DNA of 63,876 nt, counting the filler, from Lophium mytilinum (lineage: Eukaryota): assembly GCA_010093605.1 (NCBI GenBank). It is 17 parts of 12 records of this genome, joined end to end, with 100 filler letters (N's around TTAATTAATTAA, not from the genome) between each part and the next. Parts side by side here need not be neighbours in the genome. Positions count along the whole stretch, not along the records: positions 5,049 to 24,178 come from MU004205.1; 16 more parts are not named here. The stretch is one strand, 5' to 3'. The notes under the pieces were generated by a model that saw only the letters and a program-made list of their open reading frames with translations, searched no databases and was not told the origin of the DNA. This document shows, piece by piece, positions 4,456 to 44,400 of this stretch; positions within the stretch are counted from its first letter, which is position 1, and every line of letters starts with the position of its first letter. A program made the translations under genes and the position numbers.

Positions 4456-5049
4456 AAACTAGACCCTTTATAGATATAAATAAGATAATTATAGCTAATA
4501 TAGAAAAGGTAGATACTATTAATATTACTACTATAATAGCCCTAATATTAAGCTCTATAAAGAATATCTTAGTAGTAGTATTTAAAAAGGTACTATAGTT
4601 TTTTAGTTTACCTCTAATATATAGGAATTTTTCTAGTAATATAACCTTTAAGTTACTAGAAATAACTACTAATCTAAAAATGTATATAGCCCTATACTAG
4701 ATAGCTAGAATATATAGTATTATTTAAGGTCTTACTAGTAGAGCGTGTAGGCTAATTCTTATAGACCCCCCTAGAATAGAAAAAACTCTATAAATATTAA
4801 TAGTATTTACTACTTATACTAGAGAGGCTAGTATTAATACTCTATATTCTAGCAGTATTAAAGGCTATATTATTTAGCTTACTAAGAAGAGTCTACTAAA
4901 TTAGACCTATAAGAAGGTAAAATACTAGCTAGATATTAAATATAAGAANNNNNNNNNNNNNNNNNNNNNNNNNNNNNNNNNNNNNNNNNNNNTTAATTAA
5001 TTAANNNNNNNNNNNNNNNNNNNNNNNNNNNNNNNNNNNNNNNNNNNNT

Positions 5050-6350
5050 ATAATATATACTTTAATACTAAGGCTTACTACTCTTTAAAGGTAATAATAA
5101 AAATAACCCTTTTAAATTTCTATTCTAGCTTAGTAATATATATTTCTACTCTATATAGCTTTATTATAAAGCTATTTAAGTTATATAAGATTCTATAAGA
5201 GAAATCCTATTAAAGTTCTATAATACCTACTTTTATACTTAGGCCTATTACTACCTAAAATAAGGAATTAGAATTAACCCTTAAAAATTTATTTATCCAC
5301 CTAAGACTAAAACCTTTAACTACTAATACTAAAAAATACTAGATGCCTAAATTTTAGAAGGGTATAATTAGTAGAAACTTTTATATACTATAAAGACTTT
5401 AACTTAAGCTATTCTTAGTAGTATCTTAAAACCTAGATAACTATATAACTAAAAATAATAATCTAGTACTTTTAAGTTTCTTTATTATTAACTAGACTCT
5501 ATCTAGATAGCTAAGGGCGTTTTAAAAGGTATCTATTAGTAGTTATAAAGAAGTATAAACCCATAATTTTTTTTTAATTTTATAGCTATACTATTAACTT
5601 CTTACTCCTTTTATAAATAACTAGCAAGCTAAATTACACTTAAACTAAGAATTTAGAATAATTAAGCGAGTTAAATTTAGCCTAATTAATACCCCCCCTA
5701 ATATCTTTATCTACCTATATATAGTTTCTATAGTAAAATATTAACTTTTAAAGCTTTCTAGTAAATATAAGTAATAGATATTAACTTACGGGTCTTAAAA
5801 CTAGTTAGAAGGGCCAGCATCTTTAGTAGAATAGAGAGTAGAAGAGTTGGAAGGGAAAAAAAAGCTAGAATAGCTATTTTTAATAGAAGCCTTCTCCTTT
5901 TCCTTAAGAGAAGTAAGGGGTTTTTTAGCAGTAGTAGTAGCAGTTAGAAGCTCTAATTAAAGTATAAATTAGCCTAATATAAAAGGTAAAAAAGGGTTAA
6001 AAAATAAGTACTTACTTACTTCTAAATTACAAATTTCTCTAGTATAGTATTTACCTAGAATTTGCAATTAAACTTCTAAATTTATAGAAATTCTTTCTAG
6101 CGTCTTAACCCTTCTAAAAAAGAAGATTAGTATACTAGAGAGTATATAAAAGGGTTTACATTAGAGGGAAAGTTAAAAAAGTTAATAGAAAATAGTAAAC
6201 TTACTTCTTTAACTTATACTCTCTAGGTTTAGTTTTACTCCCCTTAGGTCTTCCACCCTTTATAGTAGATTTCTGCACTTTAAAAGCGCAAGAAATTATT
6301 AGAATAATTACTTAAGGTAAAAGAGCTCTTATCTTTTATTATTAGAAGAA
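5050..6350 (-). pseudogene. Unidentified multi-intron gene relic with GRPKGS (AT-hook-like) motif
   Basis: Several minus-strand GTAAGT donors (~5785, ~6015, ~6200) and translation SCAFKVQKSTIKGGRPKGSKTK. Confidence 0.35.
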
Positions 6351-7944
6351 AGAGAAGAGAGTTAGATAAAAGAATAAAGAGTTATCTTAGTATTCTTTTA
6401 TATCTAATAATTCTACTAAGATAGAAAGCTCTAATTAGCAATAAAATTAGTATTAGGCGTTAGCTAAGAGTAAGTCTAAAGCTTAGAAATATAGATTAAT
6501 AATAGAGTAGATCTAGATACCTTAAAATTATAAATATTTAATAATCTATAAAGCTAACCTCTACTTCTAGAAAATCTAGCTCTTAAGCTAAGAAAGTTAA
6601 AACTTATCTACTACCTATTTAAGTATAAAGTGCGGATAAATTGGCATATAGTATAGAAACTCTTACTTAGTACTAATTAGGTATAGCTATTACTAGAAAG
6701 AGTAGATTTAGGGTTAATTCTAGAGTAAAGCTATTAAGATAAGGATTACACTAGAATAATACTCTAAACTAGCGCATTTTTCACGCCTTATAAAATTAGC
6801 ATCTATTCTAAGCCTAAAAAGGTAATATAGGTATTTTATATAGAGTAGATTATAAGTAGTCTTAAAGTATAACCCTTATATTTATAGCACCTTTAAATCT
6901 CTAGAAAAGTAAAATTATAGTAGATAATAGCTATTTTTTATTAATACTATTAGCTATATCTAACTCTATTAACTAAAAGACTTATATATATATAGACCTA
7001 TAATAGCTTTATATATTATATAAGTAGTAAGAGTTTATATCTAATAAGTAGGCTAATATAAATTTAATAAAAAAAAGATACTTACTTACTAAACCTAAGT
7101 ACCCTAGCTATTATAGTAATTAACTAATACTAGTTATTATTAATAAAAAAGTATATAGATACTCTAGTATACTATATATATACTTTATAGCTATAGGCCT
7201 ACTCTATAGACTAAGTAAANNNNNNNNNNNNNNNNNNNNNNNNNNNNNNNNNNNNNNNNNNNNNNNNNNNNNNNNNNNNNNNNNNNNNNNNNNNNNNNNN
7301 NNNNNNNNNNNNNNNNNNNNNNNNNNNNNNNNNNNNNNNNNNNNNNNNNNNNNNNNNNNNNNNNNNNNNNNNNNNNNNNNNNNNNNNNNNNNNNNNNNNN
7401 NNNNNNNNNNNNNNNNNNNNNNNNNNNNNNNNNNNNNNNNNNNNNNNNNNNNNNNNNNNNNNNNNNNNNNNNNNNNNNNNNNNNNNNNNNNNNNNNNNNN
7501 NNNNNNNNNNNNNNNNNNNNNNNNNNNNNNNNNNNNNNNNNNNNNNNNNNNNNNNNNNNNNNNNNNNNNNNNNNNNNNNNNNNNNNNNNNNNNNNNNNNN
7601 NNNNNNNNNNNNNNNNNNNNNNNNNNNNNNNNNNNNNNNNNNNNNNNNNNNNNNNNNNNNNNNNNNNNNNNNNNNNNNNNNNNNNNNNNNNNNNNNNNNN
7701 NNNNNNNNNNNNNNNNNNNNNNNNNNNNNNNNNNNNNNNNNNNNNNNNNNNNNNNNNNNNNNNNNNNNNNNNNNNNNNNNNNNNNNNNNNNNNNNNNNNN
7801 NNNNNNNNNNNNNNNNNNNNNNNNNNNNNNNNNNNNNNNNNNNNNNNNNAGTATTTAGAGTTACTATATATAGTACTACTTAGTATATACTATATATTTA
7901 TTAAAGAGTTCTATTCTAGTAATAATTAGATGGGGGTAATCTAC

Positions 7945-8675
7945 TATTATAAACTGCCCGTTTACCTAAAGATTATACTAAGGGACTTTAGGGGGAGAGT
8001 CTAGACGGTTAAGTTTCTACTTACCTGCTAGTTAACTGCGTTACGGGCTAATACGTAATACGAGGTTTAAGTATAAATAAGTAGAATATTAGAAGGGAGG
8101 TGGCTTTAATAGTATTAGAAGTATATAAAGATAGTTAAGATACTTAAGTTATAATTAATTGCCGTTAAGTTCTATATGCTAGATATAATAAGAAGTTAAG
8201 TATAAAGAATAAAAGATAATAGGGAATCCTCTAGACTCTTATAGTTATTTAACCTTTATATAATTTAGTCCTGCTCTCTCTATTCTCCCTAATCTCTATT
8301 CTTAATGCAAGATTACTAAGATTATAGAGATTACTCTCTACTCTCCTTAATCTTACCCTTAGCGTTTATACTAAGTAAGATCTGGAAGATTAGTTACGTA
8401 ACCTTATATTCTATAACTACTACCTTTTCTAGTTATCTTTCTACTATTCTTTAAATACCCTCCTATATATAGATATAGCTAGAACTGCATCTATCTTACT
8501 ATACTAGATCTCCTTAGGTTCTAGTACCTCTATTCTAGGACTATACTTATTCTAGGATATTTATTCTAGAATAGCCTATATTCTAGTATACTATTAGTCC
8601 TAGAATATCTATTTTAGAGCTGTCCTTCTTCTAGGACGCTTATTTTAGGATAGCTTGCGTTTTAGGTTTATAACA
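7945..8675 (-). repeat. 3' LTR of gypsy element
   Basis: Colinear with 14890-15620; the differences I saw are C/T and G/A transitions. Ends TAACA. Contains internal TATTCTAGGA-like repeats. Confidence 0.95.
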
Positions 8676-8690
8676 CTTACTCCCCCTATA
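8676..8690 (-). promoter_or_regulatory. Polypurine tract
   Basis: Minus strand reads AGGGGGAGTAAG immediately before the 3' LTR. Confidence 0.8.
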
Positions 8691-8795
8691 AGGCTTTTAG
8701 CCTAAAAGTTAATCTATACTATCTTAGTTCTATATAAGGCCGGGGATGCCCCTGCGCTTTTAAGGTAGTATTCTCTACTCTTTCTTCTTCTCGCC

Positions 8796-9377
8796 ATGCC
8801 TAAGGTTAAAACCTTAACTATCTATTGCAAATATCTAGCCTCTAAGATTTATAATTATAATTATAATATGCTAACCCCCTATAGAAACTATTAGCGCTTC
8901 TATTAGTACTATCTAGTAGATACTATATCTAGTTAGTGCTCTAAGTGCCTTAATTATAACCTAAAGTCCTGTAATCTAGTAGTAACTAAGGAATACTAGA
9001 CTTAAGTTAAAAAAGTAGAGGCTAAGCTCTAGGCTTAGCTAGTTACTATAGAGGCGGCTGTACTTACTTATAAAGAGGCAGAGTAAGTAGTACTTACGCG
9101 TAAGATTTATATTTAAAAGTAACTCTAGCTTCTTAAGTATTACTATAAGAAGATATTTAAGCGGAAGCTTACTTCTATTAAGAAGTTAGAGAATTTAGAA
9201 GAGGCGGAGAAGCTAGCCGCCGCCTAATTCTCTAGATAGCTATCGCCCGGGTCCTCTAACCTGCTGGCGAACGTTAATTAGGCTGCCCTAGGGTCTCCCT
9301 CTACCTAGAATCTAGCGCTGCTAGATTCCTTTAGTAAAACTGGTTTACTAATTATTAGCAGTTTCTTAGGTTCTTAA
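8796..9377 (+). pseudogene. Antisense accessory ORF in gypsy element (six-Cys cluster plus coiled coil), RIP-damaged
   Basis: TATATAA at ~8731 and GCCATG start. Translation PYRNY*RFY*YY...CSKCL..NLKSC gives a PCxxC..C..CxxC..C pattern if TAT codons are reverted to TGT. An E/K/A/L-rich helical tract follows. Confidence 0.6.
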
Positions 9378-12300
9378 TAGGTTTCTAGGTATTCTAGTCT
9401 ATTTTCTATTCTTTCTACCTAACTAAGTACTTCTACTAATTATTAATCTTCTATAGTTCTAAGATTTCTTTAACTTTATATTTATTCTTCTTCTTAAGTT
9501 GCATAGCAGTTTAGAGTTTAGCGTTTACTAGTGCTAGTTTAAGTAGTAATACGTGGAATACTAGGTAGATTTTTATATTCTTTAGTAGTTTTAGTTTATA
9601 GTTTATAGAACTAATAACTTTATTAACTTTAAATAGTCCTATTTAAATATAATTAAGTTTTTTGCTAGGTCTTCTAGTCTTAAGGTTTTTTTAGTGTAGG
9701 TAAACCTTATCCCCCTCCTTAAAGGTTAGTCTATTTAACTATTTCTTATCTATATATGCCCGAGTTATCTTATTTCTAGCCTAAATACTTTAGTTAAGGT
9801 ATGCATGTAAGTTTCTTAGTAATACCGCCTTTTCTATTACTATTTACGCGTTTATTATATCTTCCCTAGCTTTCTAATATGCCTCTAGCTTGTAGCCGTA
9901 GTTTGCATAGAATGGGGACTCGCTAGTTATAGCTAATTTAGCGCTGTTATAGGTAAACTATGCTATAGATAGCAGTTCTACCTAGTTATTCTACTAATAG
10001 TTAACGTAGTTTTATAGGTACTATTTAAGAGTCTAATTTATTTATTCTATCTATCTATCTATCTATAGGTAGAAACTTATTAAGAGCTTATAGTTTACCC
10101 CTAACCTCGCTATAAGAGTCTTCTAGAAGTGTAAAATAAAGAGTTTATCTCTATTAGTAATAAATTCCTTAGGTAGCTAGTAGCTGCTTAGTAGGATTTA
10201 TAGTACTATATAAGCTAGCTTAGCTGCGCTATATATTTTTTATACTAGCATAAAGTATAAGAATTTAGTAAGTTAATTAATAAGCACTAAAATTAAGTTG
10301 TAGCTTATATTAGTTTCTAGTTCTACTAATAGGGGTAACTTTATAATAAAGTCTATTATTACTAAATTCTATAGTTATTTAGGAACCCTTAGATTCTAAA
10401 GTAATCTATAGAGTGCGTATCTTACTATTCTATTTTTCCCGCAGTCTTTATAGTTCTTAATTACTTCTTTTACTATTACTCTTATCTAGGGAAACTAGTA
10501 GTTCCTTAAGAGTCTCTCTAAGGTTTTTTCTTATTCTTAGTATCTATGCATTAGCGCGCTATAGTATTTCTTAGTAAGTTTCTTATAGTATACTTTTAGT
10601 ACCTATAACATTCTCTTTATTAGGTGTATCTAGTTGCTGTCTTTATCTAAGATTATAGAAGCGTTATATTGGAAGGCCTCTACGTATCCATCTTCTTTCT
10701 AGAATTTATCTATCTAAGCGTTGCTTATCTTAAGTATTACTGCTAGTTTTAGATTATTATATTATAAGGTGCTGTCTATAGCCCTTGCAAGTACTATATT
10801 ATATACTAGTTTAGTACCAAGTATATAGTCTAATTAGCGGCTAAGCGTATCTATAGCTCTATTCTCTAATCCTTTCTAGTAATAGATTTTAAAGTTAAAT
10901 AAGGCTAGTATCTCTACCTATCTTACTTATTATCTATTTAACTACTTTATAGTAGTAAAGGCCGTAAGGTTTCTATAGTTAGAGTAGACTATTACCTAGT
11001 ATTTTAGTCCTTTAAGGTAGGGTCTCTATTACTTAAATGCTACTATAATTACTAATAACTCCTTATTATAGATATTATAGTTAAGTTCTTCTAGAGTAAG
11101 TTTTCTTAAATAGAATGCTATTAGTTAGCGTTTTCTATCTAGGTGCCTCTAACTTAAGTAAGCGCCTATAGCATAGTCTAAGGCGTCTGCCTTAACCGTT
11201 ATTTCTAGTTCCGGGTTAAACATTATTAGAATTAGGGCGGTGGTAAACTTCTCCTTAAGTTTATTAAACGTAGTCTACGTTTCTGCCGTCTATTAAAATT
11301 TCTTATCTTTCTTAGTTATCTCTATAAGGGGTGCGGTGGTTTTTAAATATCTCTAAATAAACTTCCTATAGAAGTTTATAAAACTAAGAAATAACTATAT
11401 ATTCTTTACATTTTATAGTATTAGCTATTCCAAGACCGCTGCAGTCTTCTTTAGGTCTATCTTAATTCTATTGCGGGAGATAATAAAGCTAAGGAAGTCT
11501 ATTATTATAATATAAAACTTACTTTTATCTAGGTATACTAGAAGTCTAAACTCTTACAGCTTTATAAGTACTTTTTATATATATTTCTTATATTCTTCTA
11601 AGGTTTTATTAGTGTATACTAATATATTATCTAGATATACAGTTATAAATACATTAAGATATTATTATAGCGCGTAGTTAATAAGCGCTTAGAATATTAC
11701 TAGGGCGTTAGTTAAGCTAAAGGGCATTACCCTATACTTATAGAGTCTAAACCTTATTCTAAAGGCTATCTTCTACTCTTTACCGGGCATTATTCTAACA
11801 CAGTAATATCCCTCTCGGATATTAAACTTAGTAAACTACTTAGCTCCTTATAAGTAGTCTTGCAACTCCTAGATAAGTAGTAATAGGTAGTAATTCTTAA
11901 TTATTATATTATTTAGTCTTTAATAGTCTATGCATAGTTATAGTTTCCCGTTCTTCTTAGGTATAAAGAGAATTAGTAAGGCTATTAGGCTCTTACTTTT
12001 CTTAATATAGCTCTTAGCTAGGTTTATCTTAATATATTCTTGCAGCGCCTTATACTAATCTTAAGATAATAAATAGATAGGTCCCGGGGTTAGCTTTACC
12101 CCTTTCTTAAGTAGTATTATATAGTTCTATAGTTAGTTCTAAGGTAGCGCGTTCTTAATATTCTTCTTAAAGAGTTCCTTAAACTCTAAGTAGTCCTTTT
12201 ATAGTATCTCTATAACTACTTCTTTAACAGTAGCCATTTATTATAGCTAGATAATTTCTATATCTACTAGTTATTTATTATAGATCCTCTTAATCTTATA

Positions 12301-14834
12301 TAGAGAGATTTATTCTATAAAGAGTCCTTTCTTCTAGTTTTCTAGTTATTACTAAACTAATTATCTAATTCTAGCCACCCGGGCTACTAGTCTTATTTCT
12401 CTCTTCTTCTAGTTAATTACTAGGTTGTTTTAGTAGAGCTAATTCTATCCTAGAATTATATCTAGCCCTCTAATATCTATAATATTTATATATAGCGTCT
12501 CTATATAGCTAGCTACTAATAATATTATAGATTAGGTTTTAAGGTTAATTACTCCTTCTCTATACTCCGGTAGTTAGTTATCCGCTAGTTAGACTTTCTT
12601 AGATTTCTATTTCTTTTAGTATAGAAGGCCTTTATTCTCTACCTATCTTAGTAATATAAAGCTCTAGAATACTCCGCTATCTACTAATACTTTCTCTTTA
12701 AGTCCCTTATTAATCTTAAAGTTAATATATAAGTATAACTAGGGCTATATACTATATATATTTCTTAGGAATATTATTACTATATTTTCTAGTAATTTCT
12801 TAGTCTAGTAGCCTACTAGTTTTTTAGATCTATTAGAACCCTAGGCTATAGGTCTACGCTATAGATATAGCATCCAGCACCCTTAAAGTATTCTACTAAG
12901 CGTAAGAGTAGATAGTACTAGTTCTTAGTATTCTATTCTATTATTCTCTTTCCTTCTTAGTAGTGCCTATATCTATTCTTGCACTATATCTAATAGAGTG
13001 CTTAGTATTTATTACTTCTATAGTTATTCTTATTACTAGACTTCTTATCTATAGGGGCGTCTATTAGTTCTACTATAGTCTCTTCTATCTAGTTAAGCTA
13101 GTTTCTAGCGCTAATATTTTTCCAGGCGTTGGGGTTATCTAACTCTTCTAAGCCCTGGTCTTCTAGGGCTTTATTATTAATTATAATAAAATCTTTATCT
13201 ATATTAAGGTTCTTTATTACTTTAGCTAACTCTTTATCTATAAAGATACTAGTAGGTTGTTTTAGCGTTATAGGTTTAACCTTAGTAGAGGGTCTTAGAG
13301 TATCCACCCTTATCTTCTATAATTCTACCTTCTAAGGGAAGTAATTACTTCCTTCCTTAGCCTGGCAATGTATTTAATAGTCGTTATTACAGCACGCTAT
13401 AAAACTTATATTTCTATAGGGTGTTAGTTTCTTTACTACTCTTTACCTATTAGCGTCTATTTATTATAAACTATAGATATTATATTTCTCTAGTTTATAT
13501 ATTATCTATAGTAGCATATTATACTATTATCTCTTCTTATAATAAGCTGCCTATTTCTCTTACGCGTTATATATCTATTCTTCTTCTTTAAGCTTTTACC
13601 TAGTGCAGTACTCTGCGTGCATTCTTTATACCTTAGTATAGGTATCCGTGTACTAGGCCCTAATTTCTCTAAGAAATAGTTTCTCTTTATTATGTCTATT
13701 ATAGTCTATATAGATTTTCTAATATCCTATCTTATACTCTAGTTCTTAGTAGGTTAGCATCCTGCAGATCTAGCACGCCTTGCGCCGGATGCGAGTATTA
13801 ATCTATACTTAGTTAAGTAGGATTTCTATATTTTTTAGTGGCCAGTTCTAGATTATAGTAACTCTAGTATTAGTGCTTATTTCTAGACTACCCTTAAACT
13901 CTCCCGCTAGATAGTCTTATTAGTAGTGGCCGGTCTTACCGCACTATAGGCACGCGTTATTATTATACTATTTCTTAAGCTAGTTCTTATTTAGCCTCTA
14001 AAAGTTAGGCTTAGAGTTTTTCTTCTTTATCTATTTCTTCTTCGGGGCCTATTTACTAACATGGTTTAAATCTATTAGGTCCCTATAGCAATTATTCTAA
14101 GAGTACTTCTATCTCTTCCCTATAGTTACTGCTAGTTTTTACTAGCTCTTCTTTTTTAATATTCTCTTAATGTAGCGGTTATTAATCTAGTTATAGAGTT
14201 TAACTATCTTACTAAGTTTAGTTAGTTAGTTAATACTTATAAACTTATTCTTAATCTTATCTATAAGACCCGCGTAATACTATTTAACTAGGGGGCTCTT
14301 GTCCTAGTTAAGTTGCGCTAAATACTATTAAAACTTAGCCGTGTATTCCGCTACTATTCTAGTCTATTTAAGGTACTAGAGTTTATATATAGCGGTTTAG
14401 GTTGCGTTAGAGTCTCTATAGATATTCCTAATATATTTCTTAAAAGTAGTATAGTTTCTAAAGACTCTTCTAGTATTATTATCTTATTTATCTATAGAAT
14501 TATTAAGGAAATTTTCTATTATTAGGTAGAACTATGCAAGGGCATTACCCTCTAGATGCATGCCTGCTGCTAGAACCTTATCGGGTTCCTTAGAGTATAT
14601 GGCCTAGTTATAGTAAAGGTAAAGTTATATTTCTATAAGAAAGCTATTAAGCTTCCCTTAGGTACTATTATACTTTCTTAGTAAAGGTACCTTAGTTAAC
14701 TAGGCCTAAGCCTGCTACTCCGCCCTTACCTAAAGCTATAATATCGCGGTGTATAGCTCTGCAAGCTATCTATCCTGCTCTACCATGCGCTATACTATAG
14801 TAGGCTAACTAGTTATTCCTAAAGTTATAGATAT
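9330..14834 (-). pseudogene. gag-pol pseudogene of gypsy element
   Basis: Manual translation: gag KYNST*GKLNSFL; knuckle CL*CGKTGH (~13930); protease LVDSG (~12680); RT MPFSLTNAL and VYLDNILVY (~11630); RNase H KADAL and NYNIYNKELL; integrase IDFIIKLP and ITNRDKLF; chromodomain KYLVR*K...NT*KP (~9400). ORF 13098-13307 is a surviving in-frame fragment. Ends approximate. Confidence 0.92.
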
Positions 14835-14889
14835 TACTAAAATAGCTTAACTTATTATACAGGTATTTAATACTTATAGGTACTTAAAG

Positions 14890-15620
14890 TGTTATAAACT
14901 ACCTATTTACCTAAAGATTATACTAAGAGACTTTAGAGGGAGAGTCTAGATAGTTAGGTTTCTACTTACCTGCTAGTTAACTGCGTTATAGGCTAACACG
15001 TAATATAAGGTTTAAGTATAAATAAGTAGAATATTAGAAGGGAGGTAGCTTTAATAGTATTAGAAGTATATAAAGATAGTTAAGATACTTAAGTTATAAT
15101 TAATTGCTATTAAGTTCTATATACTAGATATAATAAGAAGTTAAGTATAAAGAATAAAAGATAATAGAAAATTCTCTAGACTTTTATAGTTATTTAACCT
15201 TTATATAATTTAGTCCTGCTCTCTCTATTCTTTCTAATCTCTATTCTTAATGTAAGATTACTAAGATTATAGAGATTACCCTCTACTCTCCTTAATTTTA
15301 CCCTTAGTATTTATGCTAAGTAAGATCCGGAAGATTAGTTATATAACCTTATATTCTATAACTACTACCTTTTCTAGTTACCTTTCTACTATTCTCTAAA
15401 TACTCTTCTATATATAGATATAGCTAGAACTGCATCTATCTTACTATACTAGGTCTCCTTAGGTTCTAGTACTTTTATCCTAGAACTATACTTATTCTAG
15501 GATGTTTATTCTAGGATAGCCTATATTCTAGTATACTATTAGTCCTAGAATATCTATTCTAGGGCCGTTCTCCTTCTAGGACGCTTATCCTAGGATAGCT
15601 TATATTCTAGGTTTATAATA
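14890..15620 (-). repeat. 5' LTR of gypsy element
   Basis: Starts TGTTATAAAC, matches 7945-8675 and is followed by the TSD TCTAC. Confidence 0.95.
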
Positions 15621-17847
15621 TCTACCTCTACTGGATTAACTTAGTAGTACCCTATTAACCTAGCTATATAATATTAATATAGCTTTATCTTAACCTTATT
15701 TATATCTAAACTAGCTATTCTATTATATTCTAGAATCTAAACTATACTATTTAAGCTATAAAGATATATACTCTAATAGATAAACTATAATTAAACCTAA
15801 AGTAAACTAACTATTATTAGAGAGAAACCTAAACTATATACTAAAGATAGAACTATATTAACCTAGAAAAACCCTACTACTCTCTCTAATATCTCTACTA
15901 TAGTAGATACTATATATCTACTACTCTATATAGTCTAGTATATCTATATTCTCTTTTTTATCTACTATAAAAGTAGAAGGTTCTACCTCTTTAGAAGTAT
16001 AGTATTCTTCTTCTACTATATCTATATCCTCTTTAGAACTAGAACTTTTAGAATCTTCTTCTTTAATAGAAGAATTATAGGAATAGTAGTTTTATTCTCC
16101 TATATACTTTCTAAGAATAGTTAGTTAAACTCTAATTAAGTTATATATACTAAACTTACTTAGATAATCTAATAGTTAGATTCTTAAATCCTTAAAATTC
16201 CCTAGATAAATTCTTACTATCTCTTAGCTACTTCTTATAGTTAATACTTCCTTTATATACTTTAGTAAAAAAGAAAGTATTTCCCTTAGAATAGCTAATT
16301 ATAAGGTAGAAATCTTTAAGCTGGAACTTTCTACCTAGATTAATAAGGTAGCTAGTAAGACTATCTAGCTTATTCTTATTAACTAGAAACTCTAAGTAGC
16401 CTATAGTAATAGGGCTATCTTTTACTTTAATATTATAGACTTCTTTTTCTAGGCTAGTAGTAGTAGTAATAGTATAGTCTTTAAGTACCCTAGTTATAAA
16501 GAATCTAGCTCTAGAAAGGCTAGAAAACTTATAATCTAGATTCTTCTTATAGCCTTTAGTAGAAGATCTAGAAGAATAGCGTTAGGAGTTATAGTAAGGC
16601 ATAGCTATTTAGTATTATTAGTTAGAATTTATCTTTTTAGTAGATATAGCTTCTTACCTATAGATTCTACTTTCTATCTAGNNNNNNNNNNNNNNNNNNN
16701 NNNNNNNNNNNNNNNNNNNNNNNNNNNNNNNNNNNNNNNNNNNNNNNNNNNNNNNNNNNNNNNNNNNNNNNNNNNNNNNNNNNNNNNNNNNNNNNNNNNN
16801 NNNNNNNNNNNNNNNNNNNNNNNNNNNNNNNNNNNNNNNNNNNNNNNNNNNNNNNNNNNNNNNNNNNNNNNNNNNNNNNNNNNNNNNNNNNNNNNNNNNN
16901 NNNNNNNNNNNNNNNNNNNNNNNNNNNNNNNNNNNNNNNNNTAGTAGTATCTAATCTAGATAGTATATAGTAGATATAGTTTTTAACTATAAAATAGAGT
17001 TTTTAACTACTCTAGTATATAGTAGATATATTAGTTTAATAGTAGCTATAGTATTTAACTAGAGTATTATAGTTATAATAGTATTAAAAACTAGTTTATT
17101 AATAGTAGTATTAATATATTAATTAAGCTTTAATAGTTTACTATACTTTTTAATATTCTACTTAGGTTATTAACCTAGGTTTTTAACTACTAACTAGATA
17201 TACGCTAACTACTAGCTTACTTTAACTTAGGTATAAAATAACCTTCTATCTCCTTCTAATTCTCTTTTCTTTTCTTACCCTTTACTCTACTAGTATTACT
17301 TAGCTACTTATTTAAGCTTATACTATTATCTATCTACTATCCTAAGCTAACGCTAGCTTACTCTTTTATACTTTAACTACCTATCTATCTACTATCTACT
17401 ACTACTTAAACTTCTATTCCTTTTACTTTTAAAGTAAGTAAGTTACTATAATAGATTTTTATTTATACTAACTAGAATATAGCTTTAAAATCTAAACTCT
17501 AAAAAAAACCTTTTAGCTAAGTTCTTTTTATAACGCTTTTATTCTATCTAACGTTCTACTTTTATTCTAACTCTAGTAACTCTTTTTTCTTATCTAACTC
17601 TTTAGCTTAAACTCTCTATCTAGGTAATACCTCTTTTTTATCTAACTTTATAGGGTTTCTATAACGCTTCTATTCTATCTAACTATCTAGCTTTACTTTT
17701 TACCTTCTAACTCTATTTACTCTATCTATCTATCTAGCTACCTTCTTATACTTTAGTAATTTTTCTATAGTAAGTTATTTCTTTAGATTCTTTCTTATAC
17801 TCTTTAGTATTAAGCTAATATATATTTAGAATAGCTAAACCTTTAAA

Positions 17848-20800
17848 ATAGACGCATTACTATCTAATAGTAAAATTAATACTACAGAAGTTATAGACCT
17901 AGTCTATAATTTAGAATATAATCTAGAATATAAGATTATAATCTATAAAAGTTGTAATATAGTTCTAAATCCCTTAGCTAATATTAAAGAATATTTAAAC
18001 TATAAGTATAATATTACTTCTTCTACTACTTCTAATATAGATAATCTATATAAAGACTTAAAAGACTTAGAAATTTCTAATAAAGAGGATATTTCTATAC
18101 CTCCTAATTATAGTATTTACTTTACTAGCCTACCTATAGTAGAAGGATTTAAGTGTACTATTAAAAAGAATAGTAATTTACCCGAATGCGGCTTTCTTAC
18201 TAGTAGTGAGAAAGTACTACGTATACACTTTAATAAAACGCATAATCTTAATAATATCTATAAGAATATAGATTTTAATCTAATAGAAGAGTCTAATATA
18301 TTAATGCAAACATTCTTTACTAATAATAGAAATATTAGATACTTTATTAGTAGTCTATCTAGACCAGTTGCTATAGATCGGCTATTAGAAAGTAATAATA
18401 CTCTAGAAGACTCTTCTACTTCTAATAACTTAAATACTATAAGAGAGTATCTAGATAACTATAATAGAGAAGAAGAAGAAAGAAATAGAGATAGTATACT
18501 TAACTTTAATAATCTAGAAACTAGAGATCTTAATCCTATTTATAAAAAGCTACACTAGCATAAATATCTAGATGGCCTTAATATTCCTAGCTTAATAGAA
18601 ACAGTTACTAAGAATATTCCGCCTACTACTAAAGAAGAAGAAGATAAAGATATCTGCTATTTTATCTATAAAGAAGTAATAGAATTATGTAAATACTCTA
18701 GTACTTTAATAGATAGCTATAGTAGAGAGATTTTATTCCATATTAATACAGAAAATCTAGATCCTAATAGAAAGGCTATACAAGAGTTTAAACCTTTAGA
18801 AAAAAGTTCTGCTAGGCGGTATTATCCTATATTTACTAATTTAATTATCTATCTTATTAAGTTTATAGATAATAAACTAGTAGATAAATATAAATACCCT
18901 ATTATAGAAAAGGGTACTACTAAGCTATTAGTTACTATTAAGGATTACGCTAAATACTATAGAGAAGACCCAACTAATCTAACCCTAAAAAGTAACTTCT
19001 ATCTTCTAATACTATATCTACTTCCTAAGTTATTAAAACAATCTACTAAGCAAATTAGATTAGGAGAAGAGTCTATATTTAATAGCCCAGTTATTACTTA
19101 TCTAATTATTATTAGCCTAGACCCTAAAGATAATACTCTTAAGGGGTCTAGTTCTATACAGCAGTACTATAGCTATCTTATTTATAATTTTAGACTATTA
19201 AGCTTAGGATACTTCCACTTTAAAGGATTAAAAGAAGAAGCAGAAGAAAACTCCTTTAACTTAGACTTAGCTTTTAATTCTTACTATAGTACTTATTTAA
19301 CTAATAAGTCTAATAACTTCTTTAGCGAGCTTTGTACTAGTAGGGCTTTTACTAAAGCTATTACCCTAAGTATACCTGCTAAGAATAGAATAGTAGATAT
19401 TAATCCTAGTACTATTGCAGTAGATAATAAAGAAGTATCTATACCTATGCTAGCTAGTTCTTTTAATTCTATTTTAGATAATTTAGAAGATATACTATTT
19501 AGGCAGCTAATAGAAATAACCCCTAGTTTATTAATGTTAGATGTAAATCTAATTAAAGATAATATACATAATAAATCCAAAGGATTCTACTTTTATAAAC
19601 TAAGTTCTTCTAACTATAATATTAGTAGATTTAAGAATTACTTAGCTACAGTATTACTAGGACAGAATAATAACTTTTCTACTAAGTACTTAGCTAGTTT
19701 TAATAAACAAACTAAAGAAGTTAAATTTAAGAAAGAAATAGATAACTGGCTTAATTATAGATTAAACTTTATAGACTTATTAAGTTTAGCTATTTACTTA
19801 TTAGCTGGTAGCCCTATTAGGGGAACTGAAGTAGAACAGATTAAATACTATAATAGTAATAAATTAGGAGATAGAAATCTCTATATAGATAATACTTCAG
19901 GCCTATTTAGAGTAGAAACTACTTATTCTAAAGGCGGTAGTATTACTAGCTTAGATAATAGTACTATTAGATTTCTAAGTCCTAGGCTTTCTAATATTCT
20001 AAAGATATATCTACTAATAGTAATACCTTTTTATAAGTATATTAGTAATAAACATCTAGGTATACCTAGAATAAGCCCTTACTTATTAGAGCATAATAAT
20101 ATCCGCATTACTAGTAATAGAATAAGTACTCTTTTAGGTATTAGAACCTTTAAAGATATAGGGGTTTCTATTACTTTAAATCCTTATAGGCAGGTTATTA
20201 AGTATATTCTTAAAACTAGACTAGGAATAGATTCTAATAATATAGAAGAAGAGGAAGAGCAAATAGAAGATATTACTAGTAACCACCGAACTTTTACTAC
20301 AGCTATAAATTATGGCCGAGAGTATAATCTATTTATTAATAGAAATAGCTTAATAGAAAAGCAATCTATAGATTTTAATACTAAATTCTTTAAGTATTTT
20401 AAGCTAGATAACCCACACTTTAACTATAGTAAACTAAGTACTACTCTTATTATATCTCCTAAGAAAGGTAGAGCTAGGTCGACTAGTAGTATAGATATAG
20501 GTTATAAGAAAGTAAAACCTACTATATATAATATAGAAGAAGAAGAAGAAGAAGAATTAGAAGAATCTAATATACTATATAATAGCCCTACTCCTATTAA
20601 CTCTAGTAGTAATACTAAACCTTTAAACTTAAGCCAGCCTAGTAATAATAAGCAAGCTTATAACTTAAATAGATTAAGCCAATCTAATAGTAGTTTTAGC
20701 CTAGAATCTACTCCTCCTATTTTAAAAAGTAATTCTAGCTCTAGTACTATTCCTTTTAGTAGTTCTACTAAACTTTCTACTAGTAAAAAACTAAAGATAG

Positions 20801-22565
20801 TACAAGAGAATATTAAGTTAAGAAAGCTAGCTTTAAATACTAGCTTTACTAGTAGTAATTCTCTAGAAGTATAGATAACTAAGCTATTTAAAAACCCGAA
20901 TGCTAAATTTAGAAGTGCTAAGTAAAAGGAAGTTATAGAGAATATTATAAATAAGGTTCCTTTTATTACTTATATTAGTAGTATAGGATCTGGTAAAAGT
21001 CTACTATTTAATCTACCTAGCTATATTTATCCTAATAGAAAGTATATAGTAGTAGCTTCTAGAATTAGCTTAGTAGAAGATTTAAATAAGTACGCATTAG
21101 AATTAGGGCTTAATAGTACTATTTGGACTCCTACTACTAATATAGATGCTAATCTTATATTTATTAGTATAGAGAATATAGTATTAGAAGAATTTAAAGG
21201 CTATATCTATAATCTTAAAGCTAATAACTTTAGTACTACTCTATTTTTTAATGAAGCCCATCTATTAGTATACGAAGTAGATTTTAGGCAAAAACTAAAT
21301 AAAATAGATAATNNNNNNNNNNNNNNNNNNNNNNNNNNNNNNNNNNNNNNNNNNNNNNNNNNNNNNNNNNNNNNNNNNNNNNNNNNNNNNNNNNNNNNNN
21401 NNNNNNNNNNNNNNNNNNNNNNNNNNNNNNNNNNNNNNNNNNNNNNNNNNNNNNNNNNNNNNNNNNNNNNNNNNNNNNNNNNNNNNNNNNNNNNNNNNNN
21501 NNNNNNNNNNNNNNNNNNNNNNNNNNNNNNNNNNNNNNNNNNNNNNNNNNNNNNNNNNNNNNNNNNNNNNNNNNNNNNNNNNNNNNNNNNNNNNNNNNNN
21601 NNNNNNNNNNNNNNNNNNNNNNNNNNNNNNNNNNNNNNNNNNAAAAACCTTTAGAAGAAATTACTATAAATACTAATAGCTTTACTACTTTAGAAGAAGC
21701 TAAAAAAATAGACTAGTTTAAAGTACAACAGTTTCTATATAGTAAAAGCTGTTCCCGAATAGTATTAGAAGAATTTCTTAATAATAAAGTTATAGCAAGC
21801 TGTTCTACTCTAGGAATAGAAGATATAGTTAAATGCCAGCTTTATATAGATAAAGAAAATATATTAATTAAAACTAAAGAGAAATATATAGAACAGGTAA
21901 TAGTAAGTAAAAGTAGTACTAATAAACTACTAGAAAAGTTAGAATATCTTAAGAATAGAATATGCCTAAACTATATTATAAGTAAAGATTTAGATTCTAG
22001 GCCGGTATTTAACTATAGTTATACTACTTGCCCTTACTCTAAAACCGACTTAGATACTACAGTTAAAGGTACTGCATTAGTTATTAGAAGAGACCGCCTA
22101 ATGCCTAATAATATTAGCTATCTAGGGTGCTTTATTCCTAATAATATATGCTCTAATAAAGGAGATAGAAGAAAAGCCTGCGCATATAAAGATCTATTTT
22201 CTAGATTTATAGTATTAATACACTTTATTATTAGGCATGGCCTATATACTAAGTTTAGTTATAGCGCTAAATTATATAATACTAAAAAACTAAATAAATT
22301 TAGTAGTTATCTAGATTTATTAGATTCTATTACTGCTAAACTATGCAGTTTAGTTAAAGTAGATAGTAAAGATAGTATTATAGGATACTAGGTTCTATTA
22401 ACTATAGATTTCTAAGATCTAGAACGTATTCTTAAGTACGGCCCTAGTAGCCAAGATCCTCTAATAGCTAAATTAGATAGAGTAGATTTAATGTCTAGTT
22501 TAACTAATAAAGAAAAAGAAGAAGAAGAGATAGAAGAAGAAGAAGAATATAACTTAGCGGACTAA
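17848..22565 (+). pseudogene. Telomere-linked-helicase-like fusion gene: DUF3505-like Zn fingers + tyrosine-recombinase-like domain + RecQ helicase + Cys-rich tail
   Basis: One reading frame from 17848 to the gap at 21312 with only three stops (18556, 20872, 20923), all RIP-type. Motifs: EYKIIIYKSC, LPIVEGFKC..C..H..H, MQTFF..RYF; GSPIRGTE, TYSKG, PYRQ, SNH..AINYGR; FRSAK*KE, GSGKS, FNEAH. After the gap: CSR..C..C RecQ zinc region and further CxxC motifs. Includes listed ORFs 18304, 19447 and 22101. Confidence 0.85.
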
Positions 22566-23279
22566 ATTAAAGGTTAGGAGTTCTAGTTAAACTAATACTT
22601 ATTTCTTTCTATTAGATAGGCTAGTACTCTTTCTAATATTCTATTAAAAAAGCTAATATCTTTAGTAGTCTAAACCTATAAAAGTACTAACTATAAGTAT
22701 TTCTATTTAGCTATTCTAATAATCTATTTCTTTTCTCTAATTCTAATCTACCTAGTCTACTATAAAAAACTACTTTTTTCTAACTCTAATCTATAAAACC
22801 CTATAAAAAAGTATTTTTTTCTAAGTACTTCTTATTTCTTTTAGTAATTTCTATTAGTTAGATATATTCTTTTAGTTTTAGGGTAGTTAGAGTTTAGGGT
22901 TTATACTTTTCTAATAATTCTATATAGTTTCTAAAATATATTTTTAAACTAGAGCTTAAACTCTCTTAACTAATATACTACAACCTTTTTTTCTTTATTT
23001 TCTAATTCTAGATAATCTAAATAATCTTATATTAAATCCCCTTATAAGAATAGTAGTTTAATCCTTTATAAACTTTTAAAAAAATAGCTAGAGTTAAGTT
23101 TTCTATAGAAAATATTTATATAGTATAATTCTTTACTACTTTTAAGTTAGTACTTTTAATATTTTAGACTAATATAACTCTTTTTACTAACTTTCTAGTA
23201 TAATATATTCTATACTACTTATAAGTAGATAGTATATCTAAAAACTAATCTAATTATACTTAGGCTTTAAAAGGTAGAA

Positions 23280-24178
23280 ATAAGTTAAAGGTAATAAACC
23301 CTAAGTAGTAATAAACTAGAGATAATAAAGCCTAGGTATAAAAGGTTAAGTAGTAACTAAGTAGTAATAAACTCTAAGTAGTAAAGCCTAAGTAGTAGTA
23401 ACTAAGTAGTAAAGCCTAAGTAGTAGTAGCTAAGTAGTAATAAACTTAAAGTAATAAAGCCTAAAAACTAAGAGCTAAATAGTAATACTATAGTAGTAAT
23501 TAAAAAGTAGTAATATACTAGAAGTAATAAAGCTTCCTAAGTAATAAAGTTATAGAAATAGACTAGAGGTAACTAAGTTTAAATAGTATTAGCTAAGTAG
23601 TAATAAAGAAGTAGTAATATACTAGAAGTAATAAAGCTTAAATAGTAATAGAGTAGTAGAATTTTACTAGAAATAATATAGTCTAAGTAATAATAACTAA
23701 GTAGTAATAAGAAAGTAGTAGTAGAGTAGTAGTAATAAAGTAGAAGTAATAAAGAAGTAGTACTTAAAAGCTTAAAATAAAGAAGTAGTAATAAAGTAGA
23801 AGTAATAGGGTCTAATAGTACTAGAGAAAAAGTAATAAAGCCTAAATAGTAATAGAGATAAAGTAATAAACTAGAGATACTCTAGTCTAGATAGTAATAA
23901 AGAAGTAGTAATAGAGATATAGTAATAAACTAGAAGTAATAAAGTCTAAATAGTAATAAAGAAATAGTATTAAAGAAAAAGTAACTAACTAGAGGTAATA
24001 AAGTCTAAGTAGTAATAACTAAGTAGTAATAGCTAAGTAGTAATAGAGTAGTAGAAATAAACTAGAAGTAGTAACGCCTAAGTAGTAATAAACTAGAGGT
24101 AATAAAGCCTAAGTAGTAATAACTAAGTAGTAAAAGCTAAGGAGTAATAGAGTAGTAGAAATAAAATAGAAGTAGTAA
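23280..24178. repeat. Degenerate minisatellite built on AAGTAGTAA(T) units
   Basis: Dozens of variants such as AAGTAGTAATAAA, CTAAGTAGTAA and CTAGAAGTAAT, strongly purine-biased on the + strand. Confidence 0.85.
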
Positions 24179-24278
24179 NNNNNNNNNNNNNNNNNNNNNN
24201 NNNNNNNNNNNNNNNNNNNNNNTTAATTAATTAANNNNNNNNNNNNNNNNNNNNNNNNNNNNNNNNNNNNNNNNNNNN

Positions 24279-24487: not shown

Positions 24488-24538
24488 TTAGTTAGGGTTA
24501 GTTTATTATAGGGGCTAGAGGGTTAGGGTTAGGTAGGG
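24488..24538 (+). repeat. Short telomere-like (TTAGGG) remnants
   Basis: GTTAGGGTTAG and GGGTTAGGGTTAGGTAGGG; only a few units. Confidence 0.4.
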
Positions 24539-27500: not shown

Positions 27501-29339
27501 TATAGGTATAATAATCTATTAGTAAATACTCTACATGCAGTAAGTATAATCTAATTAGCGTTAGAAGTCTAGTATACTTACTATATATCTTAACTCTTTC
27601 TATTTAGATAATATAGTAGCTAATATTATAATATAGCAAGTAACTATATAATAGTTCCTTAGAGTAGATCCCTTAGCTAAGTTACTAGCTTTCTTCTAGC
27701 TTAGAACCTTCCCTCCTAATAAGAGCCTATTACAGCTAATACAGCCTTCTATTTAATAAGCCAACTAGAGCTATTATAGAGAGAGGATAATCCTAATAAC
27801 TTTNNNNNNNNNNNNNNNNNNNNNNNNNNNNNNNNNNNNNNNNNNNNTTAATTAATTAANNNNNNNNNNNNNNNNNNNNNNNNNNNNNNNNNNNNNNNNN
27901 NNNACCCCTAGAATTCTATAACCTTATATAGCCTTAGATTATTAGACTCCCTTAAGAAGTATAGTATAGCTTAGCTAAAGTTAGAGTACTTAGATTAGAT
28001 AATAACGCCCCTATAACTTAGCCCTTAAGGCGTTAATTAACTGCAAGCCGGCCTTAGGAATTAATTCTAAGCTATATTTACTAAAGCTTAGATCTAGATA
28101 TCTCTTACTAGGGAGGATATAGAGATATAGTATCTATAGTATAGCATTATAGTATAGTATACACTAGCTATTTAACGCGAAAATAGGACTAAAGTATAAA
28201 AAGATTAGCGATTGGCACTACTATAGATAGGTAAGGCAGCTATACTTATTATTAAGGCATACTATACTAATATATATAAGCTTCTAAGTAGATAGTATAT
28301 AGAAGAAGACGGAAATACTAAAATATAATAGGAGAGTAAAGAACTACGCAACTAATTTCTTAAGAGTATTCTAAATAGATCTATAGTTATGCTTTATTTT
28401 AATATGCTTATAAAGCTATATAGAAAGTTAGAACTTATAGTAAGCTATACCTATATGCGGAATATAGCTAGAAATAGTAATATAAATTATCTAAGGTACT
28501 TAACTAGACGCTAAATTAATTAAGTCTAGCTGCTGTTTAATATTACGGATCTAGCTATAGAAACTTAAAAATAGAATAACAGTCCCTTCTATATAAAATT
28601 ATAAAGATTAAATATAATAATTAAAAATAAAGCGTTACTAAAAACAGTAGAATAATTCCTTAATAATCTATAAGCGAGAGCCGCCTTATTACTCTAGGTT
28701 CTTCTAAAATATAATAACAATAAAATTTTAACCACGCGTTAAGCTAAATAAAATAACTTTAAAGATATATAAGATAATATTAGGGGAAGAGATATAATTA
28801 TAAATATATAGTAGATCTATATATAACTACTAAATAGCTACTACTATAAGGTAGCCTAACTAAGCTAATATATTAAAGAACGGGCTTAAGGGGGGGTAGT
28901 TAATCTTAGCATAGACGTAGTTGTAAAGGAAGTATAGAATATAACCTAGGAAAGCCTAGGAAAGTTAAAGATAATAATAATAGAGGATAATATTATAGGC
29001 TCTAGGGGTTAAGTTAATCTAAAATATATCTAGCTTAGGTTTAAGCACTATATACTAAATAGCCTAAGGGCTTATTTAGGCAGGATTTTAATAATTAAAG
29101 AATTCTAGAATTATTTAGTAATATAGAAGGAGCAAGAGGGGGATATAAGTAGTTAGTTATTAGATAAAAAGTATAAGTATAAAGAGAGTTTAGGTAACTA
29201 TAGCTTAGAAATAGAGGACTTAGAGGACTTAGGGTAAGAGGCCTAGAAGAATAAGGCTTAAGTAGAAGAGTTCTAAGAAGTATATAGATTTAAGCGTTAA
29301 TAGATAGACTAGTAGGGGCGGCGTTATAAAGAAGAATTA

Positions 29340-41494: not shown

Positions 41495-44400
41495 NNNNNN
41501 NNNNNNNNNNNNNNNNNNNNNNNNNNNNNNNNNNNNNNTTAATTAATTAANNNNNNNNNNNNNNNNNNNNNNNNNNNNNNNNNNNNNNNNNNNNAGCTTA
41601 TATTACCTACTAAGCTTCTCTATCCCTTCTACTCTACTCTATAAGCTTTTTTATCTACTAGGTTTCTCTATTTCTCCCGCTCTACTCTATAGAATTTTTT
41701 TTCTACTAAGTTTCTCTATCTCTCCTACTCTACTCTATATAATAGCGCCTTAGTTCTAGTATAATCTTTTATATATATAGCTCTTAATCTTTCTAACTAC
41801 TATACGCAACTATATATCTATATTCTCTACTAGCTTTTAACTCTACTCTAACTACTACTTCTCTAGCCCTACTTTTCTTAGAAAATAAGCGGGCGGATAG
41901 AATATATACTCTATCGCCGGCGCTAGATATACTTTAATCTAGTATTATAGGGACAACCTAGCCCTTATATATACTAGTAATAGATAACTATCTACTATAT
42001 AATAACGCGGTAGAGAGAGGGAAAATAAAGCTACCCCTACTCTAATATCTCTAACTCTCCTTATAGTACTGCGTAAAATTATCTAGAATTATATAAGATT
42101 ATCTATAATTATTATAGCGTGCCCCCTATATTCTTATATTCTAAAAGAGACTCTAGCCTATTTCTTTAAGTATATTTTAGGTCCTGTAACTGCCCTACTA
42201 GATAGAGAGTATATATTTTTATTGCCTTTTAGCGCATAAGTATACTATAGGCTAGGTTATAAAATAATAGTATTCTAACTTCTAAGGTTAGAAGTATAAT
42301 AGAAGAGACTATAAATAGAGGAGCAGCAACCTAAAATATAGATAGAAGAAGTAAAGCGTACTAATATAGAGGGAAATAAGAGATATAGAAGAAGTAAATA
42401 GAAAGAAGGGGCTATAGAGGCGGTAGTATTATAGCTATAATACTAGAGGCTATTCTATAATATAGATATAAAAGACTACCGCCGGAGCTTATATTAGTAG
42501 TAGAATAGTTATATACTTTTTATTATTTATAGATAGTTATATACTGCGGCCTAACTCTTAAATAATAGGTCTTAGTAGTAATATAGTAAGAGTCTACCTA
42601 AGAATATATTAAGTATTCTAATTATAATTTATAAGCTAGACCTAGCGCTAAATTATAGAATAGATAGATTATATCTTTTCTACCTATCCTCTATATATCT
42701 ATTAAATCTACTTTTTAACTACTATAGCTCTAACTTTACCGTACTAACTATTTATAGGATAAAGATTAGACGTTCTAGCCTAAGTACTTACTATCCCTAC
42801 TTACTTCCACCCCCGCCTTGCACTACTATAGAGAGGGAAGAGCGGTAAATAGAATTATTTTATAGTAGAATGTAGGCGGCATTATATATAGGGTATATAT
42901 ATATTAGCTCTAGCACTACTAAAGCTAATTAGGTAAAAGATACTATAGAACTAAATTATTAATAGTTTAAAATAATAGATAATAATTAAGTGTTATTAGG
43001 CTATATAGTATATAGGTAAACTACTACTAGTCTATATAGTAATATTACCTGCGCTAGTAGTTTATATAGATGTTGCGTAATTTACGCGGTTTACTAGAAG
43101 TTTACGCTGTTCGCTGCTAAGTACTAATAGCTCTAACTTTTGCAGTTTTAGGTTTTTCTAATATTACTAAAACTATATATATTAAATTTAAGTATAGCTA
43201 TAATATTAATACTACTAATTACTATATCCCCCGCAACTTAGATATTACTAGAAATAGTTTAGCTACTCTCTATAGTAACTATAAGTATATAGAGTTATTT
43301 TTAGATAGTTAGATACTAAGTAGTTCTAGGCTTAAGCGTCCTAAGCTACTATATAACCTTATTATAGATAATACTAGGCTAAATAGAATTATATATTAAC
43401 TTAGTATATAGCTAGATAATATTAAGTATCTATTAAATTAGTTATACTTTCTTTTTTATTTATAGCTTTTATACCTTCTTCTCTACTAGTAGTTTCTACT
43501 TTCTTTATTTCTTTTACTCTACTATCTCTTCTAGCTATTTCTATCTTTTTACTTTCTCTTTAGTTATAGTCTTAGCTAGCTTTCTCTTCTTCTATTCTAT
43601 CTACTTCTTAGCCTTTTCCGCTATTACTATATCTACTAGCTCTCTCTTCTTTATCTTTTTTTTCTTTATCTCTTTCTTCTTTTTTTCTTTCTCTACTTTT
43701 ACTATTTCTACTAGCGCTTTCTCTACTAGCGCTTTCTCCGCTAGCTCTTTTTCTACTAACTCTTTCTTCTTCTTCTCTTTTTCTTTCTTTTCTCTCTCTG
43801 CTTTTACTATTTCTACTAGCTCTTTCTTTTTTTTTTCTTTCTCTTCTTTTACTATATCTACTAGCTATTTCTACTTCTTCTCTTTATTCTAGTCTATAGT
43901 AGAATTAACCTTATCTATATTAGCTATATATATATCTAGACTTATAATTAAGTTAATAATTATTTTATTTAGAGTATTAGCGGCGGTAGATTTAGGTAGA
44001 CTCTTAGCCGCGGTAGCCTTAGGCTTACTACGGCGGGGGCGTTTCTTAGCCGGGCAGATACTAGAGGGCGGGGACTTAAGAAAGTATAGACCTAGCTATA
44101 TATTAGTTAGTAGTAATATTTAATAATTAATAATAATTAATATATATCTAGTCTTAAGTTTAAATATTATCTTTCTAATATTAAGGCCCTTTACTATAAA
44201 ACTAAGTACTATCTCTTTAGATATACTTTTTATTTCCTCTAATAGTATAGTTAAATAGAAGTTATTCTCTATTAACTTCTAGGTTCTATTAACTATAATA
44301 ACGTGCTCTAGAGGGTTAAAGTCTATAAAAGTTCTATTAATAGCTTCTAGAAACTTTATAAAGCTATAGTCTTCTAGCTTTAGGCCTTTACTACTAGACC

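Follow-up and report, generated by a model that had tools for sequence, protein, structure and literature searches.

Can the large middle domain of a gene that joins a zinc finger to a RecQ-like helicase be a DNA recombinase, and could such a gene move itself? This question is raised by a locus of the fungus Lophium mytilinum (GenBank assembly GCA_010093605.1), which lies at 17848-22565 on the forward strand of the 63,876-nucleotide stretch of DNA that we analyzed (the window). The first-pass annotation of the window had taken the locus for the engine of a self-mobilizing subtelomeric element. We found that the copy in the window is dead, a pseudogene, and that it is built in the same way as telomere-linked helicase (TLH) genes. 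Its middle domain has a predicted recombinase-like fold, and its intact relatives would cut and rejoin DNA and move their own gene block; we give this reading as a whole a probability of about 0.62. Catalysis and self-mobilization by the intact relatives are inferred.

The reading frame of the gene runs from 17848 to 21311 and, past an assembly gap of 330 N (21313-21642), continues in a different frame up to 22565. Over 17848-21311, 3 of the 1154 codons of frame 1 are stops, compared with a mean of 103 and a minimum of 74 in 200 mononucleotide shuffles; the remaining forward frames have 142 and 266. These counts bear out the frame of the first-pass annotation, and each motif quoted there was found at the coordinates it gave. 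A tblastn search with intact relatives found one copy of the gene within the window. Its parts follow each other in the order OrsD/DUF3505 zinc finger, conserved region of ~620 residues, low-complexity linker, RecQ-like helicase, and Cys-rich tail. Pfam matched OrsD (PF12013, formerly DUF3505) in 17839-18555 with an E value of 1.3e-10, as expected from the DUF3505-like C2H2 region proposed earlier, and matched DEAD weakly (E 3e-3) in 20926-21311; it placed no family on the middle frame of 771 codons.

The N-terminal region (17848-18555) contains the OrsD C2H2-type zinc finger at ~17908-18246, recognized by Pfam and by alignment to the relatives P0003 and P0004. Its two C2H2-type motifs align with those of the relatives, and several of their ligands are mutated in the window copy. 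An in-frame TAG follows at 18556-18558, a position that is Trp in the intact relative P0002. The conserved central region then opens with its helical, N-terminal half (18559-19734), which is possibly a core-binding-like domain. The predicted tyrosine-recombinase/topoisomerase-IB-like catalytic domain occupies 19735-20397. It is followed by a low-complexity linker rich in Ser, Asn, and Glu (20398-20886), which has a TAG at 20872 and aligns poorly among the relatives. The N-terminal lobe of the RecQ-like superfamily 2 (SF2) helicase (20887-21311) is supported by Pfam DEAD, by tblastn to P0002, P0003, and P0005, and by alignment; it contains motif I, GSGKS (20986-21000), motif Ia (21049-21072), and motif II (21250-21261). 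The gap hides about 200 codons corresponding to residues 1038-1238 of P0002, that is, the Helicase_C lobe, and the reading frame shifts across it. The C-terminal region (21645-22565, terminal stop at 22563) has a RecQ-like Cys-rich stretch at 21750-21845 and 21960-22166, and a C-x-C-x2-C-like pattern is present.

We modeled read-through residues 535-870 (window 19450-20457) with AlphaFold2, using an alignment of 50 sequences and no templates. The model had a mean predicted local distance difference test (pLDDT) score of 87.5 and a predicted template modeling (pTM) score of 0.88. When it was compared with the PDB by Foldseek, the top rows listed were all tyrosine recombinases, the first listed protein of another kind standing at rank 31, and the rows listed included Cre (E 9.5e-3, probability 0.99), a staphylococcal integrase, XerA, XerH, and the Tn1549 integrase. 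VIA, a second and independent aligner, gave a list of 50 rows that was homogeneous for the tyrosine-recombinase/topoisomerase-IB superfamily. These comparisons support a tyrosine-recombinase/topoisomerase-IB catalytic fold for the central domain as modeled. A structural match to this fold, which the first-pass annotation had set in advance as a test, was therefore obtained.

A word-indexed search for relatives found three, one of them intact, with 1534 amino acids and a sequence identity of 68%. An exhaustive profile search with a 617-position central region matched 2147 cluster representatives at E ≤0.001, 817 at 1e-10, and 78 at 1e-30. Many of the top matches, intact relatives included, share the Asn/Ile/Lys-rich make-up of the window's protein, and many others are of ordinary composition. 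Conservation of the candidate active site was counted by hmmalign of stored profile matches, with up to 138 homologues. The motif GSPIRGTE (19807-19830) holds R658, encoded at 19819 and present in 135 of the 137 homologues aligned there, and the Box-I Glu, E661 (128/136). TYSKG (19921-19935) holds K695 at 19930 (136/138). R781, at 20188 in NPYRQ (20179-20193), is kept in 128 of 130 homologues, and the residue after it is His in 72 and Gln in 34 of 129. At H813, at 20284 in SNH (20278-20286), 91 of 111 homologues have His and 15 have Arg. Y822, at 20311 with an Arg following at 20317, is kept in 107 of 109.

R, K, R, and Y are thus kept in at least 98% of the homologues and H in 82%, and all five are intact in the window copy. 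In the region of ~620 residues, 17 positions are at least 85% conserved, and 5 of these are active-site candidates or the Box-I Glu. These alignments show R, K, R, H, and Y to be near-invariant across the family and in the order known from the superfamily, so the conservation asked for in advance was also found. In the model, R658 lies just before a helix, K695 in a hairpin after the second strand (153-159), R781 inside a helix, and Y822 where a helix ends, in the segment of lowest model confidence.

The helicase attached to this domain is of the RecQ kind, as had been proposed. The intact relative P0002 carries DEAD and Helicase_C, and all 32 PDB matches of its helicase are RecQ-family chains, the best being E. 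coli RecQ (E 9.8e-10); the alignments to RECQ1 and WRN extend into the zinc-binding region. RecQ_Zn_bind, RQC, and HRDC had no Pfam match in P0002 or in 27 long members of the family. In most of these 27, OrsD is found at the N terminus and DEAD and Helicase_C after the central region, and no Pfam family was found on the central region in any of them at E ≤0.01. In 34 shorter members the only partners at E ≤0.001 were OrsD and SF2 helicase models (DEAD, Helicase_C, ResIII, and Helicase_C_2). The sequence comparisons support a RecQ-like helicase, whose core in the intact relative matches only RecQ-family chains, as in E. coli RecQ, RECQ1, WRN, and RECQ5, but whose C-terminal part appears to be a Cys-rich region specific to this family. 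Motifs 0, I, Ia, and II of the earlier description are present in the window copy, but they are damaged, since the Gln of motif 0 has become TAA at 20923 and motif II, the Walker B motif, reads NEAH where the relatives have DEAH. The remaining helicase motifs fall within the assembly gap.

Several points weigh against a recombinase. Pfam scans of the window protein and of 64 relatives turned up neither Phage_integrase nor DUF3435, the domain of Starship captains to which the locus had been compared. Sequence profile searches of the PDB with the central region gave 0 matches with a 4-sequence profile and only 2 weak, irrelevant ones with a 50-sequence profile. A comparison with XerD by hhalign was not significant (probability 0.23%, E 0.26), and its global mode gave a nonsense alignment; the XerD profile contained 77 sequences, namely, E. 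coli XerD and 76 of 80 loci, the other 4 having been left out for open frames of <250 amino acids or with X. The extended hhalign alignment is collinear and pairs the conserved residues above with XerD R148, E151, K172, R247, H248, H270, and Y279, but the equivalence to the recombinase active site rests on this non-significant alignment together with the secondary-structure context. Foldseek gave no match in the PDB at E ≤0.001, and the confidence of the model is lowest in the segment with H and Y (pLDDT 58 to 80). The gene is present once in the window, and its unplaced contig reveals no element boundaries, target sites or target duplications, empty sites, telomere position, or movement. The recombinase domain of the first-pass annotation is supported as a predicted fold by AlphaFold2, Foldseek, and VIA, but no sequence-profile method gave a significant match to tyrosine recombinases.

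Two further points are of the same kind. The VIA list also contains Ndc10 and QRICH1, which have the fold and are non-catalytic. As in these proteins, the central domain might be a DNA-binding module only, and the TLH proteins would then be host telomere-repair helicases that cut no strand. We consider this unlikely, though it deserves to be taken seriously: derivatives that have given up catalysis do not, as a rule, keep the residues for it, whereas all five candidates persist here, among the most conserved positions of the whole region. The other point concerns the order R..K..HxxR..H/W..Y in which the first-pass annotation had read the motifs. The five residues R, K, R, H, and Y hold, but position 778, the place of the first His in HxxR, varies (S in 28, Q in 26, N in 24, and K in 13 of 130 homologues). 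Type IB topoisomerases likewise are not known to have such a His. As a further explanation of the fold, a swivel of the type IB topoisomerase kind, which would nick and reseal DNA and so release the torsion produced by the helicase, for example in break-induced replication at chromosome ends, would involve no recombination with a partner; we hold it to be improbable.

A telomere resolvase, which makes or opens hairpin ends, would suit a gene family that is telomere-linked in the parts of the literature consulted, and TelA is indeed among the Foldseek rows listed. Its match (rank 45, E 0.92) is far weaker than those of Xer and Cre, however, the 50 VIA rows listed contain no protelomerase, and the TLH-bearing fungi have ordinary TTAGGG telomeres according to the published descriptions available to us, so that this idea is barely credible. 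It is also very unlikely that the resemblance is due to chance and that the TLH domain is some other, unrelated alpha/beta domain of separate chemistry, because the lists of two independent aligners are homogeneous for one superfamily and the conserved residues match its active site in order, spacing, and secondary-structure context.

The gene is assigned to the TLH family by its architecture, which has been published and is not new as such. In the portions of the TLH papers that we draw on, the proteins, of ~1500 residues, carry a pair of C2H2-type motifs at the N terminus and a helicase with RecQ-like motifs, and the conserved TLH domain is located just upstream of this helicase. The TLH genes of Magnaporthe (TLH1), Schizosaccharomyces pombe (tlh1 and tlh2), Fusarium, and Botrytis have their parts in the same order as the gene in the window, and the conserved central region sits directly upstream of the helicase, as the TLH domain would. 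TLH genes have been recognized at the ends of fungal chromosomes for more than 20 years. From the same sources, they are multi-copy, often mutated, and sometimes very AT-rich. A subtelomeric RecQ open reading frame of Zymoseptoria is described there with 34.7% GC and 13 copies, AT-rich yet open; in Botrytis the presence of TLH differs between strains, and in Fusarium TLH arrays have telomere repeats on both flanks. Unlike the published TLH genes, the window copy lies on an unplaced contig without terminal telomere repeats.

Within these sources, neither a fold nor a function is assigned to the TLH domain, and a 2024 Fusarium preprint describes the function of the protein as undetermined. Our literature search turned up nothing that connects tyrosine recombinases with TLH genes or with their TLH domain; it did not cover the 2009 paper on the TLH domain, so an earlier statement is possible. 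It also found no description of an arrangement of zinc finger, recombinase fold, and helicase.

In comparison with Xer, Cre, and lambda integrase, the domain has no significant sequence similarity and does not conserve the first His of HxxR, and its first Arg and the Tyr are 164 residues apart. It is also embedded in a protein of ~1500 residues, with a zinc finger before it and a helicase after it. With Cryptons and Starship captains (DUF3435) the gene shares a fungal host, association with repeats, a recombinase-fold domain, and frequent attack by repeat-induced point mutation (RIP). To our knowledge, Cryptons and Starship captains carry no helicase. As far as we found, the fusion of a recombinase-fold domain with a RecQ-like helicase would give the superfamily a new architecture.

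If the main reading is right, the conserved Tyr of the intact relatives would cut one DNA strand through a covalent 3'-phosphotyrosine and then rejoin it, the zinc finger and the helical domain would select the DNA, and the fused RecQ-like helicase would unwind or branch-migrate the joint. By this route the protein would carry its gene block, or a copy of it, from one chromosome end to another. The multi-copy state of TLH genes, their strain variation, the telomere-flanked arrays, and the AT-rich open frames fit a self-spreading element of chromosome ends without proving one. The recombinase-fold domain with its conserved active site gives the TLH genes a concrete hypothesis, strand cutting and rejoining by way of the conserved Tyr, and suggests a mechanism for the spread and rearrangement of subtelomeric blocks, a process tied to the turnover of accessory genes in fungi. 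The window copy is incapable of any of these steps. It is a dead relic, of interest only as a member of a gene family that is itself already known.

A wider proposal, that TLH genes are the recombinase genes of widespread eukaryotic mobile elements and not host helicases, is one that we put forward as tentative and rather doubtful. The tyrosine recombinase and the RecQ-like helicase would together target chromosome ends, and the telomere repeats would perhaps be the crossover site. Such elements, if they exist, would explain the TLH arrays flanked by telomere repeats, the variation in presence between strains, and the attack by RIP. The multi-copy state of TLH genes, their strain variation, the telomere-flanked arrays, and the AT-rich open frames fit a self-spreading element of chromosome ends without proving one.

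The window copy is dead because of six in-frame stops (18556, 20872, 20923, 21714, 22389, and 22413), an ATA at the place of the start codon (17848), lost zinc ligands, and the NEAH of motif II. Three stops had been counted originally, and the view of this copy as the engine of a mobile element therefore does not hold. Compared with the relatives, zinc ligands of OrsD are replaced from C to Y and from H to Y, and several Cys of the C-terminal Cys region are changed to Tyr or Ser, the last Cys of 21750-21845 being Tyr. The RIP index TpA/ApT is 1.7 to 1.95. Residue changes relative to the intact relative are 64 of the GC-to-AT type and 51 of the opposite type, so that the window copy is not clearly more AT-shifted than the relative.

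Sequencing runs were found for the stretch from one sample only, in the form of two DNA runs (X1 and X2) and no RNA run. In their contigs, which are ~99% alike to the window, positions 17850 and 18557 are G and position 20872 is C. The codons there are ATG, TGG, and CAG, against ATA, TAG, and TAG in the window. It follows that at least three of the lesions are recent, RIP-type transitions. The version in the two runs is less damaged and represents either the allele of another isolate or a second gene copy. The near-open frame, despite the RIP-like composition, looks like the result of selection during repeated RIP. In 17848-21311, 30 of the 47 CpA dinucleotides fall on codon positions 1 and 2 (18 Gln and 12 His codons). 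A RIP change at a CpA in these codon positions would alter or end the protein.

One contig from the two runs tracks the gene to 18385 and then enters a near-identical copy of 24505-24534, a weak hint of a truncated gene copy adjoining a telomere-like tract. In the same contigs, the summed word depth over 16942-18400, that is, the upstream flank together with the gene's first 550 nt, is about twice that over 18400-21312; the doubling may point to one more copy, a partial one, but word depth is not itself a copy number.

Small unplaced contigs have been strung together to form the window, and adjacency across a joint carries no meaning. The joints are artificial linkers of 100 nt, made of 44 N, the six-frame stop linker TTAATTAATTAA, and 44 N, and occur 17 times (4949-5048, 24179-24278, 27804-27903, and 14 more). 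The gene's own contig is the piece of ~19 kb at 5049-24178, unplaced and with three assembly gaps. The subtelomeric location assumed at first is not shown by anything in the window, which has no (TTAGGG)3 array and no terminal telomere array. A single telomere-like match of 14 nt, GGGTTAGGGTTAGG, is found at 24520-24533, in a degenerate telomere-like tract of the neighboring contig; another, at 62058, is at chance level.

The G+C content is ~26% across the entire window, and the RIP-type dinucleotide signature is strong in each 4-kb block, with TpA/ApT of 1.74 to 1.96 and (CpA+TpG)/(ApC+GpT) of 0.05 to 0.27. Runs of N aside, the only frames of at least 150 codons in the 64 kb are the gene's own and one of 151 codons at 43437-43892, and a tRNA scan of the window found no tRNA. 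In the upstream flank of the gene, Pfam searches of six-frame read-through translations revealed a degraded Ty3/Gypsy retrotransposon on the reverse strand (9538-14558), with gag (~14265-14558), reverse transcriptase-RNase H (~11000-11290), an integrase zinc domain (~10430-10580), and a Tf2-type SH3 domain (~9538-9714). Downstream, Tandem Repeats Finder detected an AT-rich minisatellite with a period of 14 and multiples of it, which reaches the end of the contig (23291-24178). A 19-nt repeat akin to this minisatellite opens the next contig (24279-24453). Since related repeats end the one contig and open the other, the two contigs that meet at the joint at 24179-24278 may be neighbors in the genome.

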